Positions 46,671-49,874 of a stretch of 64,000 nucleotides of DNA are shown here, one piece after another. Numbering within the stretch: the first letter of the stretch is position 1; the number at the start of each line of letters is the position of its first letter. Made by a program: the position numbers and the translations under genes. The DNA comes from Candidatus Versatilivorator sp. (GTDB lineage Bacteria; Acidobacteriota; Terriglobia; Versatilivoradales; Versatilivoraceae): positions 4,032,001-4,096,000 of the forward strand of contig OZ242296.1 of NCBI GenBank assembly GCA_965207735.1. The letters are read 5' to 3'. The notes beneath the pieces are model-generated. The model was not told the origin of the DNA, ran no database searches, and saw only the letters and a list, made by a program, of their open reading frames with translations.

Positions 46671-46708
46671 TCGGGGCTTGCGGAACTTGTCTGAAACAAC
46701 CCCGCAGT

Positions 46709-48103
46709 TCAAGCGGCTGCGATTTGTGGAACCAGGTTGAAACCAAGAGACTTAGCAGCATCTTTGAGGCCCGCGAGGCGGCGTCTCCGGAACCGGTCTT
46801 CGTAGCACGCTTCCCCGATGTCGATGTAGTCCTGGCCGTAGCGCAGCATGCGGTAGACGAGAACGGCCAGCCGGCGGGCCATGGAGAAGACGGCGACGGT
46901 CCATCCCTTGTGGCGGGCCTTGCGACGGAAGGCGGCCCCCAGAGCGGTCTTGGAGTGCTTCAGAGAGACGGCTGCCATGCGCAGGACGGCGGCGGCGCGA
47001 GTAGACCCGGTGCTGTTGGCCTTCTTGTAGTGGAGCGGCTTGCCTGCGGAGACGGCCGTTTTTGGAGCCAGGCGCAGCCAGGATACAAAGTGCTTCTCCG
47101 AGGGGAAGGCCGTCAGGTCGAGGCTGGCCTCAGTCAGCAGGGTCAGGGCCGCTTCGGTGCCGATGCCGTCGATACGCGTCAGATCGACTCCGGCAAAGCG
47201 CCACAGTTCGGTGCGCAGGTGGTGCCCACCGCGGCGGCGAATCGCCTTTTCCTTGATCGCATTGGGATGCTTCGGCACGGGCTGGTCGTGGCGCTCCACC
47301 GGTTGCAGCGCCTGGATTTCCTCCAGGATGCGGGCCTCATAGGCCGCAATCTCGCGTTGAGTCATGTCGTAGAGCTTCAGCGCCGACTTGAGGTTGAACA
47401 GATGCTCTTCTCGCCAGTTGCCTCTGAGGTGCTCGGCAAACTCCCGGCTGGACTTCTTGCACCGTCGGTCCCGCAGACCCGCCAGACGGACCGGGTCCCG
47501 TTCTCCGTTGACAATCGCCCGCACGATCGCTATCCCCGTCTGACCGGTCAGATCGGTGACCGCACGATGGATCTGGACGTTCATCTGATCCAGCGCCTTC
47601 TGCATCCACTGCACAAAGCGGGTACTCTCGGCCCCCAGAGTGCTCAGTTGCCGGTGCAGGGTCCGAACCCGGACGATCGCCTCGTGCGGACGGAAGGATC
47701 CCCGCAGCAAGCCGCAACTGTGCAGCAACTGGATCCACTGGCAGTCCCGCATGTCGGTCTTGCGGCCCGGAACGTAGCGCAACTGCCGGGCGTTGACCAG
47801 CAAGACCTCGATGCCGCAGGACTCCAGCAGTTCGTAGAGGGGAATCCAATACACGTTGGTGCTCTCCATCGCCACCGACTCCACCCCTTGCTCCAGCAAC
47901 CAGTCGGCCAGTTGCTGCAGTTGCTCCATGGTGGTGCCGAAGGTGCGCACGTTCGGCTTCCCTGGGGTTGCCTCCGGAGCGCACACCCAGTGCTCCCGAC
48001 TCCCCAGGTCGATCCCTGCCACCTCGGGGTGGATCCGCGACAAGGCTGTCGAACGGCTGCGCTTCTTCTTCGTCTTCGTGTTGACTTTCCTGCTCTTTTG
48101 CAT
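46709..48103 (-). CDS. IS110-family DEDD recombinase/transposase
   Basis: AGIDLG, VAMESTNVYW, KTDMRDCQW, IDGIG, F.SWLRLAP...SAG; GAGGAGG RBS before ATG at 48103. Confidence 0.93.
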   Translation of the reverse strand: MQKSRKVNTKTKKKRSRSTALSRIHPEVAGIDLGSREHWVCAPEATPGKPNVRTFGTTMEQLQQLADWLLEQGVESVAMESTNVYWIPLYELLESCGIEVLLVNARQLRYVPGRKTDMRDCQWIQLLHSCGLLRGSFRPHEAIVRVRTLHRQLSTLGAESTRFVQWMQKALDQMNVQIHRAVTDLTGQTGIAIVRAIVNGERDPVRLAGLRDRRCKKSSREFAEHLRGNWREEHLFNLKSALKLYDMTQREIAAYEARILEEIQALQPVERHDQPVPKHPNAIKEKAIRRRGGHHLRTELWRFAGVDLTRIDGIGTEAALTLLTEASLDLTAFPSEKHFVSWLRLAPKTAVSAGKPLHYKKANSTGSTRAAAVLRMAAVSLKHSKTALGAAFRRKARHKGWTVAVFSMARRLAVLVYRMLRYGQDYIDIGEACYEDRFRRRRLAGLKDAAKSLGFNLVPQIAAA

Positions 48104-48143
48104 GAGATTGGCCTCCTCGGCGGCGATCACTCCGGCCCGAGTT

Positions 48144-48335
48144 GGCGTGGTCGTTCGGATTCTTGTCTTGAGGAGAGCTTCCCGGGAAGCCTCACTAATG
48201 AATGATGACCTGCTCGGACCCAGACTTGCCTTGGGGCACGGGGCACCAATGCTGGAACGGGGCGTAGCTGCCGGAGTCTCGCCAGGTGCTTATTCTTTCA
48301 CAATGATCCGTTGTTTCACCCTCGAATGATCCGCC
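48144..48335 (+). ncRNA. Candidate IS110 bridge-like RNA, antisense to the recombinase
   Basis: Outer stem 48144-48158/48322-48335 encloses TTCTTGTCT, GACTTGCCT and GTTGTTTCA, which match the element's junction halves. Transcription is not shown. Confidence 0.55.
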
Positions 48336-48387
48336 CGTCGTGGGGGGCGGGGGCGGGACTTGCCTGAAACAACCCAAAAAGACAAAA

Positions 48388-49874
48388 GAGCCTTTTGCAA
48401 AATTCGGAATCGGGCATGACATTGGGCTGGCAACAGTGATGTTCCGGCGGTGACTACCCAGCTGCAAAGACCCTTTTGAAGGAAAAAGCCCGAATCTGAT
48501 GGCCGGATGGCCAGCGGTCGCCGGACGCAGGCACAGCTTACCCTCTCCCGGCCTTGAGGCGGGCGAACCTGCTGTGCGGTTGGGGGTGGCAACCCGGTCT
48601 TCAGAGCGTCAGGCGCATCAACTGATCCACCGTCAGGGCCAGAATGCCGAACATCAGGTGGCACCTCACCTTGTCGGGGCCGCGAACCCTCACCTGCCTC
48701 CCGCCAAACTCCTCCTTGAGCCGTCCGTTGACCCGCTCCACCGTCGAGCGTTCCCGGTAGCGCCGCGCCTCGGGAGTCACTTGGCCGATACAGCGCCGGG
48801 CCAGTGCCTCCCGCTTCCGCTCGGCTTTCAAGGTAGCTCTTCGGCGGGGGTTGACGTCAATAATCGGCACATGCCCCAGCTTCTCACTGAAGGCCCGGAT
48901 CTCCGGCGCATCGTAGGCGCTGTCCATCAAGTCGTAGAGACTCTCGACCCGCCTTGCCGTCAGCGTCGCCAGCGGAATGGCTGCCTGAGAGTCATGCACC
49001 GAGGCCGAGGTCAGCAGACAACTGACCGGAATCCCGCCGTCAATGGCGTCGAGGTGTAGCTTGTAGCCGGTCCAGCTCTCCTGATGCCCCTTGGCGTTGC
49101 GCTTGACGCCGATGTCGCAGGCCTTGGGCAACTCCTTCAACATTTCCTCCAGCGTCATCGACCCCTGCCGCTCCAGCCGGCTCAACCGCTTGGGCCGTCG
49201 CTCGCCCTTCGGCGGCCGGCCCCGCCGGCGTTTCCGCTTGGCCTCCGGCGCAGCCTTGGCCGCTGGCTTTTCCCGTCCCGCAATCGCCGTCGAGTCCCTC
49301 GACACATGCCCCGCCAAGTGGCCCTTCAGCGTCTCCTCCAGCAATGCCTCGTGCAAACGCCCCGGCAGGTCGCTCTCAGCGAATTCCGCAAAGGCCCGCG
49401 AGAAGGTCGACTCGCTCGGTACCTCCCACGCCCTCTCCCAGCCGCACAGCCGCCGCAGCCTCCCCTCACTCCTCAGCCGCTCCACCAATCCCCGCGTGGT
49501 CGCCACCTCCAGCATCGACTTCGCCAGATAGGCTCGCGCCAGCACTGCCCGATCCTCCAGCGGCCGGCCACGCCAGCCCCGACTGTAAGGCAGCAACTCC
49601 TCCACCCGCACCAACTCCAATACCTGCACCAGCCGCTGGTAACGCTCTCCCAGAGGCCCCAAAACTTCCTCCAGCAGGGGAAACAGCTCTCGTTGAAACC
49701 GGAACCAGTGTCGTGATAGGGTTTCCCTAAGGGGCAAGTTCCACCTCCGTTCATCATGTGGTTCAGACACCTTCATGATACAACAGACAGTGGTCTTGCC
49801 CCTCCTTCCACCTGCCCTCCTTGATCTTTCCCCACGTGAAAATTCCCGCTATCTGCGAATTTTGCAAAAGGCTC
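48388..49874 (-). mobile_element. IS5/IS1182-like insertion sequence, copy 3 (1487 bp, inverted)
   Basis: Same TIRs; 4-bp TSD AAAA. Confidence 0.93.
48601..49776 (-). CDS. DDE transposase, identical protein to copies 1 and 2
   Basis: Same 391-aa translation. Confidence 0.93.
   Translation of the reverse strand: MKVSEPHDERRWNLPLRETLSRHWFRFQRELFPLLEEVLGPLGERYQRLVQVLELVRVEELLPYSRGWRGRPLEDRAVLARAYLAKSMLEVATTRGLVERLRSEGRLRRLCGWERAWEVPSESTFSRAFAEFAESDLPGRLHEALLEETLKGHLAGHVSRDSTAIAGREKPAAKAAPEAKRKRRRGRPPKGERRPKRLSRLERQGSMTLEEMLKELPKACDIGVKRNAKGHQESWTGYKLHLDAIDGGIPVSCLLTSASVHDSQAAIPLATLTARRVESLYDLMDSAYDAPEIRAFSEKLGHVPIIDVNPRRRATLKAERKREALARRCIGQVTPEARRYRERSTVERVNGRLKEEFGGRQVRVRGPDKVRCHLMFGILALTVDQLMRLTL

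Follow-up and report, generated by a model that had tools for sequence, protein, structure and literature searches.

Introduction

Among the closest described systems is IS621 (Durrant 2024, PMC11208160; Hiraizumi 2024, PMC11208158), in which the 3' guide side of the bridge RNA forms base pairs with the DNA's top strand. According to the accessible text of the second report (PMC11208158), RTG residues G77–G80 of IS621 pair with tC11–tC8, and this guide is hence AG-ended; handshake positions 81–82 read donor positions 6–7 after top-strand exchange. A second group is formed by the IS1111-type elements with their seekRNAs. As described in the text available from Siddiquee 2024 (PMC11187229), the complement of the top strand comes first in IS1111-type seekRNAs, and the order is reversed in the IS110 type; a few IS1111 relatives have their non-coding region upstream, and the transposases of the IS110 subgroup comprise 395–455 aa. 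Two preprints, in the text accessible from them, describe that IS110 elements form single-strand circles and that the top strand is transferred; they raise the question of whether these elements move as single-stranded circles, and by what means a circle of this kind could be recognized.

In this study, we analyzed an IS110-family element whose long non-coding end had been proposed to encode a guide RNA on the strand opposite the recombinase. Judged by sequence comparison, this end is a real bridge-RNA locus and a variant of the known type, with its RNA predicted on the recombinase strand.

Results

The element and its recombinase gene

Within the window (the whole stretch of DNA that was analyzed, 64,000 nucleotides), the IS110-family element occupies positions 46686–48360 on the minus strand, both copies of its CT core included (1673 bp counting one core). 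Ten copies of the element, sharing 97–100% identity, are present in the genome. The recombinase gene (46709–48103), which lies on the minus strand as originally reported, starts at an ATG behind a GAGGAGG ribosome site and encodes 464 aa with an N-terminal DEDD (RuvC-like) domain (PF01548, 8e-23) and a C-terminal PF02371 domain (1.1e-11), both above their cut-offs. The protein also matches the NCBIfam equivalog NF033542, "IS110 family RNA-guided transposase", with 217.3 bits (cut-off 140). Of the candidates for the catalytic D, E, D, and D and the Tnp-domain serine, D32, D117, and S352 are invariant in five relatives, and the putative E position is occupied by E or Q among the relatives and by E in the window protein. 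The non-coding stretches of the element comprise 262 nt upstream and 21 nt downstream of the recombinase gene.

Copies L004–L007 form a subfamily (B) with a 12-bp insertion in the basic N-terminal stretch of the recombinase; they measure 1573 vs 1561 between anchors in the other copies of this genome (G000), have an open frame of 530 vs 526 aa, and also differ in segment 1 (A for G), which is described below. A 493-aa open frame on the plus strand (46724–48205) runs antisense over the full length of the recombinase gene and probably represents a shadow frame caused by the GC-rich DNA.

Position of the crossover and ends of the element

The two junction strings on which the original prediction relied are present in the window, at 46684–46700 and 48357–48374, and each contains the motif ACTTGyCT with a variable y. 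Copies from the genome, an empty site, and a relative together place the crossover 5 bp to the left of the ends that had been proposed. At the left junction (y at 46690), y is T in two and C in eight copies and agrees with the element subfamily in 10/10. At the right junction (y at 48363), C and T occur in five copies each among the ten without subfamily agreement, and further variants are present there in L008 and L010. Therefore, the y at 46690 belongs to the element, whereas the y at 48363 and the L008/L010 variants, being independent of subfamily, are derived from the target, and the crossover lies to the left of y.

The orthologous empty site in the sister genome G002, whose flank is 99% identical, reads GCGGAA-CT-TGCC, with C as at 48363; G005 has T, not C, at the same site, and the G002 empty site alone is not decisive for the ends. 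A relative in G008 with an 80%-identical element sits in a different tandem repeat. Its target reads GTGGTC-AG-TGATCAG and its donor GACA-AG-CCCAG, and only AG is common to both. The behavior of y at the junctions, the G002 empty site, and the AG-only overlap in G008 thus identify, at the level of sequence, the first CT of ACTTGyCT as the core and the point of crossover. It is CT on the plus strand and AG on the recombinase strand, with a left copy at 46686–46687 and a right copy at 48359–48360.

In the 10-copy alignment, an indel of 1 nt in the hairpin is the sole variation on the plus-strand right side through ...GGGCGGGA-CT. A 55-bp look-alike of the left half of a genomic palindromic repeat, the same in all copies, is located in the left end of the element (the end upstream of its recombinase gene), and the invariance up to ...GGGCGGGA-CT makes this look-alike a part of the element. 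An alternative end at approximately 48310, with an intact repeat adjoining, was rejected because the look-alike does not vary among copies and because three copies also carry a true repeat half on the other side.

In L022 (G002), which is otherwise near-identical, the first 5 nt of the left end are CGACG, not TCCCG; the same 5-mer stands at this position in the genomic repeat beside L040, and it may have come from exchange with a repeat. In L023/L033 (G013:C1:313510–316576), two copies are arranged head to tail, and a single core connects the far end of the leading copy to the left end of the next. This joint reproduces, in the chromosome, the circle (donor) junction that is predicted for the element.

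Sub-terminal inverted repeats and the targeted palindromic repeat

The element carries a 9-bp sub-terminal inverted repeat, with a right-end arm at 46692–46700 (TGAAACAAC on the plus strand) and its reverse complement as a left-end arm at 48310–48318 (GTTGTTTCA on the plus strand). The left-end arm, found where it had been reported, was taken for a third guide in the original prediction; it is an arm of this repeat and falls outside the conserved model described below. The reverse complement of the right-end arm is located 32–41 nt into the left end in 20/21 lineages (shuffled mean 6.9, max 14), and the arms change together (GTTTC/GAAAC, GTTAG/CTAAC, and GTTCC/GGAAC).

Both arms are also part of the palindromic repeat of the genome, which serves the element as its target. 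The repeat is approximately 76 bp long and consists of these outer arms and a variable GC hairpin. Its right part, at 48361–48389, represents the target in the window, and approximately 76 further short matches in the genome, solo copies of the repeat, span 48311–48389 only. A 14-mer of the repeat, CTTGYCTGAAACAA, occurs 201 times in the genome (reversed control, 0). The repeats are often organized in tandem arrays with a period of approximately 182 bp and conserved spacers (e.g., G000 C1:1368268–1369242), and the element is present at only 10 sites. In 7/10 element copies in this genome, there is no repeat half on the side of the module-1 5' guide (see below), and targeting looks, from the sequences, to be dominated by the right half.

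A second insertion sequence (48390–49810) abuts the right part of the repeat. Its transposase (48601–49776, minus strand) gave sub-threshold NCBIfam IS1182/IS5 hits (117 vs 270; 70 vs 140). At L001, L003, and L008, ...GACAAAAG is followed either by the end of this insertion sequence or by the inverted form of that end (GAGCCTTTTGCAAAATTCG), which suggests that this insertion sequence, too, has a fixed insertion point within the repeat.

A conserved structure in the non-coding end

For comparison, 23 rows were extracted from in-genus relatives and aligned, and 77 loci with 40–79% protein identity were found in public genomes with a 5-protein alignment. A conserved-motif regex located the region in 22 of the 77 loci. 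The alignment used below (A2) holds 21 sequences, namely seven in-genus representatives, after duplicates had been dropped, and 14 of the 22 motif loci. Loci L052, L055, and L056 were dropped as duplicates, L051 as identical with the in-genus G008 element, and L107 as truncated; in L091 and L126, which were also dropped, the motif match lies beside the start codon, not in the non-coding end.

The structure derived from A2 consists of an outer helix, one stem round each of two modules, and one hairpin per module. Each module runs through a stem, a variable 7 nt followed by CA, UU, a stem-loop, a variable 5–6 nt followed by AG, 2 nt, and the stem again, and the pair has the form of the two internal-loop modules of IS621 (stem/5' guide/stem-loop/3' guide/stem). 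In the 21-sequence alignment, 88.2% of 686 cells are paired, compared with 77.6% in shuffles (0/500 as high), and slid controls reach at most 53%. Both sides change in 15/33 pairs, and compensatory cells number 70 vs 24. RNAalifold independently returned the same helices with 19/29 pairs compensatory, giving module 2 a GG/CC closure instead of the derived three-pair extension. Compensatory changes occur in all five helices save the small module-1 hairpin.

In the window, this conserved structured core, the predicted bridge RNA, covers 153 nt (48127–48279, minus strand) and matches model R1 with 142.6 bits. With the covariance model derived from A2, 83 matches were obtained, distributed over 79 sources (the window, L027, L028, L030, and 75/77 loci) and nearly all of them directly upstream of the recombinase gene and on its strand; since the model was built from the recombinase strand, these matches show conservation, not the strand of an RNA. 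In L054 (3012–3168) and L055 (3170–3326), a second match lies approximately 1.8 kb downstream of the first. Segment 1 of the second match in L055 (CAGGTCAG) equals segment 2 of the first element, and this match looks like a relative aimed at the end of the other element.

A search of Rfam at E up to 10 gave chance-level matches only, all with E above 5, and a promoter and terminator scan gave 0 sigma-70-like promoter sites. Folding of both strands, which had been suggested as a check, gave single-sequence folds no better than shuffles on either strand (z +0.76 and +1.37). The two stems that had been drawn on the plus strand were not confirmed. The long stem between 48144–48158 and 48322–48335 amounts to four G-C pairs with scattered wobbles and is absent from the plus-strand minimum-energy fold, and part of one of its sides lies in or beside helices with compensatory changes. 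The 3' arm of the second stem is the 5' guide of module 2, for which no conserved complement was found upstream (mean best match 6.02 vs 5.98 shuffled); its reverse complement was found in 3/31 lineages, with a shuffled mean of 3.2.

Predicted right guides and a handshake-like dinucleotide

Guide matches were examined in 56 model matches located just upstream of a matched recombinase, which reduced to 48 non-redundant matches and 47 with both segments complete. These lineages are related, and the shuffle tests therefore overstate independence.

Segment 1 (AGGCAAG, 48225–48231, minus strand), which corresponds to the right target guide in IS621 terms, is found as an exact 7-mer in the upstream flank (190 nt) in 31/47 lineages (shuffled mean 1.2, max 6), and takes the form of 43 distinct 7-mers across the lineages. 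In G008, segment 1 is GGUCAG and the target ends in GGTCAG. In the genome studied here, segment 1 and the flank are in agreement at the A/G position in 7/10 copies, or in 9/10 if rG:dT is allowed; L005 shows an A:C mismatch. Segment 2 (AGACAAG, 48162–48168, minus strand), the right donor guide, is found as an exact 7-mer within 150 nt past the stop codon in 32/47 lineages (shuffled mean 2.4, max 9). At the A/G position, segment 2 corresponds to the far end of the element in 10/10 copies of the genome and in 21/22 alignable in-genus rows, where L047 disagrees; L048 has lost its end. Reverse-complement controls gave 0/47 for each segment and cross controls 1/47 each, and AG stands at the end of each segment in 45/47. 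The 2 nt that follow segment 1 (UC, 48223–48224, minus strand) resemble the handshake guide, both being identical to the start of the left end in 25/31 lineages (shuffled mean 8.5, max 17). For the dinucleotide that follows segment 2, no match to the flank was seen (4/31 lineages vs 2.9).

Within the 64-kb window, AGRCAAG occurs 21 times, compared with 15.0 ± 3.8 expected, and 11/100 shuffles reach 21. The significance of the segment matches comes solely from the comparison with relatives.

The 3' guides are therefore, in the sense used for IS621, complementary to the core and the right half of target and donor. The right donor half is not at the start of the RNA-encoding end, where IS621 has it; segment 2 matches the recombinase-distal end.

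The original prediction had noticed the same places on the plus strand, as GACTTGCCT at 48223–48231 and TTCTTGTCT at 48160–48168. Its expectation that guide-like segments of the non-coding end covary with the flank and the element end in homologs is borne out for these two; GTTGTTTCA is the inverted-repeat arm. The exact 9/9 match of GACTTGCCT arises as the complement of the right target guide plus the handshake dinucleotide, and equals the right-hand junction at 48357–48365. In the 7/9 match of TTCTTGTCT, the right donor guide is extended by two positions that do not match. With the corrected ends, the roles of donor and target are exchanged, and 48225–48231 reads the target and 48162–48168 the donor.

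Candidate 5' guides, a donor box, and a GC-rich hairpin

The 5' guide candidate of module 1 (GUUCCAG+CA, 48250–48258, minus strand), a possible left target guide, has seven hypervariable nucleotides and a conserved CA; its core position reads CA, not CU. Its match to the reverse complement of the 3' flank/junction is weak (mean best 4.94 vs 4.45 of 9; 1/1000 shuffles as high, in 32 lineages of which one has an empty guide). A comparison with all nearby sequence in both orientations gave this weak canonical signal only and no same-sense signal. A 5-nt same-sense match at the junction of the window copy itself was discarded as probably due to chance.

The 5' guide of module 2 (CAUCAUU+CA, 48199–48207, minus strand) is in the position of a left donor guide. 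No match was found to the bases beside the core, which the left donor guide of IS621 reads; the 5 nt beside the core vary among G000, G013, G005, G004, and G008 (TCCCG, CCGCG, TCGGG, CACCA, and CCCAG), and the guide is unchanged. In the same sense, this guide matches a box at 48323–48331 (the "D-box"), just inside a GC-rich hairpin. At least 7 of 9 positions match in 11/31 lineages (shuffled mean 2.4, max 7; 0/2000), and in these 11 lineages the box is located 19–27 nt from the start of the left end. Box and guide change together across lineages (CATTC, CATAC, CCTATCA, ATCCAACA, ATTGAA, and TTTGAAC). The hairpin (48332–48357) lies between the box and the core, and its CCGCCC/GGGCGG is changed to CTGCCC/GGGCAG in G004. 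When the plus strand of the natural right junction was folded as single-strand DNA, an outer repeat stem and an inner hairpin were obtained (-16 kcal/mol, z -1.9; 8/200 shuffles equally good).

Because the module-2 guide has the same sense as the box beyond the hairpin, both donor guides would pair with the plus strand, flanking the hairpin. We tentatively consider the possibility that the donors of this clade are read in the form of one folded strand that both donor guides recognize. The sub-terminal repeats (48310–48318 with 46692–46700 in the circle) would then form the outer stem on the plus strand and the GC hairpin the inner stem, leaving an internal loop between them. The 3' side of this loop (CT+TGTCT) would pair with the right donor guide, and its 5' side (the box at 48323–48331) would replace the missing bottom strand and pair with the left donor guide. 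In the folded plus strand, the box would run antiparallel to the core-proximal strand, and the geometry of IS621 would be kept with one strand. A single-stranded circle could thereby be recognized by both donor guides without second-strand synthesis. The plus strand is the one that carries CT, and in IS621, as far as the published text available describes it, the CT-bearing strand is exchanged first. Alternatively, the repeats may be recognized by protein, or the box may have a role in another step. In the accessible article texts on IS110 elements and bridge RNAs, we found no account of a box that matches a guide and lies on the far side of a hairpin in the donor.

Strand of the predicted RNA

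Read on the minus strand, each segment is located 3' of a stem-loop and ends in AG, and segment 1 is followed by the 2-nt handshake-like match. This is the layout of the right guides of IS621; therefore, the recombinase-sense strand fits and the plus strand does not. Apart from this layout, indications of the strand are few. In the structure alignment, there are 38 G.U cells on the sense strand vs 19 A.C cells. Thermodynamic comparison did not separate the strands, with alifold energies of -20.5 vs -17.8 kcal/mol and fixed-structure energies of -27.2 vs -27.0 kcal/mol, the latter being lower on the sense strand in 11/21 sequences. Provided that an RNA is made, its strand is in all likelihood the sense (recombinase) strand. 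The fuller prediction, that the 153-nt element (48279 to 48127, minus strand) is transcribed in the direction of the recombinase and acts as a bridge RNA, is very likely.

Public RNA data were surveyed in 24 listed runs, four of which were examined as Logan contigs at a likeness of at least 90%. Metatranscriptome contigs from relatives cover the recombinase gene and the left end; the contigs carry no strand. A contig joint from 48337 to 46684, with 15 other letters, was considered as a circle junction and rejected, as it corresponds to a solo genomic repeat.

Discussion

We propose a model for the element in which the right target guide would pair with CT+TGCCT and the right donor guide with CT+TGTCT (46686–46692), both on the plus strand. 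The dinucleotide after segment 1 would serve as the handshake guide after top-strand exchange, CT would be the cleavage site of the DEDD/serine recombinase, and copies of the palindromic repeat would be the sites into which it inserts the circle. With the CT-bearing plus strand taken as the top strand, the right donor half is at the recombinase-distal end, and the guides, in the direction of the recombinase, are ordered with the top-strand complement first and the bottom-strand match second.

In the reading that we started from, the guide RNA is transcribed from the plus strand, divergent from the recombinase; its left guides terminate with the second CT, and the target loop encloses the donor arm. 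All three of its segments are indeed present on the plus strand, the helices are nearly equal in energy on either strand, and 19 cells form G.U on the plus strand only. However, the balance of G.U cells, at 38 to 19, favors the sense strand, and this reading assumes ends that are 5 bp off. With the corrected ends, its segments would begin with the core (CU + 5 nt), be preceded by the handshake-like 2 nt, and be located 5' of the stem-loops, an arrangement that corresponds to no guide described in the accessible text of the reports cited here. Its third segment is the inverted-repeat arm outside the conserved model, and both of its stems are without support. We therefore regard transcription of the guide from the plus strand as very improbable.

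Two further explanations dispense with a guide RNA, and we give either of them hardly any credence. The internal copies could be DNA sites bound by the recombinase and the helices a leader controlling its translation, as might be suspected from the outer helix, which ends 26 nt before the ATG and near the GAGGAGG ribosome site, and from the sub-terminal repeats, which could be protein sites. Segment 1, however, tracks the host flank outside the element in 43 distinct forms, unlike a protein site; the modules are laid out like those of the solved bridge RNA, and the protein itself falls in the NCBIfam family of RNA-guided transposases. Alternatively, the ends may copy the palindromic repeat by gene conversion, the internal segments being decayed pieces without function. 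The 55-bp look-alike of the left repeat half and the different 5 nt beside the core in the G002 copy L022 are in keeping with such mimicry. Against it, the G008 element and more distant relatives, which sit in unrelated targets, still keep the match of segment to flank, and the segments occupy fixed positions in a covarying structure. A bridge RNA read in the direction of the recombinase thus remains our preferred interpretation.

The choice of strand and ends matters for use of the element, as the wrong strand or ends that are 5 bp off would lead to wrong guide and donor designs in annotating or reprogramming it. The clade comprises approximately 75 loci, assigned by record titles to Acidobacteriota, Opitutales, Polyangia, cyanobacteria, Dehalococcoidia, and proteobacteria, and provides right guides that are naturally 7 nt long and follow a clear handshake rule. 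Donor guides that would read the same strand on either side of a hairpin bear on the question of IS110 movement as single-stranded circles and on how a circle of this kind could be recognized.

The locus resembles IS621, as described in the accessible text of PMC11208160 and PMC11208158, in several features. Its predicted RNA is encoded in the long end that lies upstream of the gene for a DEDD/serine recombinase; in two pseudo-symmetric internal-loop modules, a stem-loop stands between a 5' guide position of 9 nt and a 3' guide ending in AG; the target right guide is followed by two handshake nucleotides that would read the donor; the core is CT, and the target is a repetitive palindrome. It differs from the published descriptions of IS621 in several respects. 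The right guides have 7 nt here and 4 nt in wild-type IS621, and the bases adjoining the core are not those read by the 5' donor guide. The right donor half is recombinase-distal and the core reads AG in the direction of the gene, whereas in IS621 this half is at the start of the RNA-encoding end. The recombinase has 464 aa, compared with 315–330 aa in the IS621 branch (PMC11187229), and the sub-terminal inverted repeat has 9 bp, compared with 2–3 bp.

In other respects, the element resembles the IS1111-type seekRNA elements, such as ISPa11 on REP, as far as they are covered in the accessible text of PMC11187229. It shares with them sub-terminal inverted repeats (9 bp here, within the IS1111 range of 7–17 bp), the order of the guides, and insertion into potentially folded repeats. 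The non-coding region, however, is upstream of the recombinase gene here and downstream of the gene for the transposase in the IS1111 type, and the extensions past the repeat are approximately 6–7 nt and approximately 48 nt (hairpin and box), compared with 7 and 3 bp. A conserved GC-rich stem-loop beside the recombination site in the DNA substrate is also part of the "dual-match" targeting of ISPpu10 (bioRxiv 10.64898/2026.03.19.712850). In the text available from that preprint, the stem-loop of ISPpu10 is in the target and is called a structural gate/specificity element, whereas the invariant hairpin described here is in the donor and parts the guide-matching box from the core.
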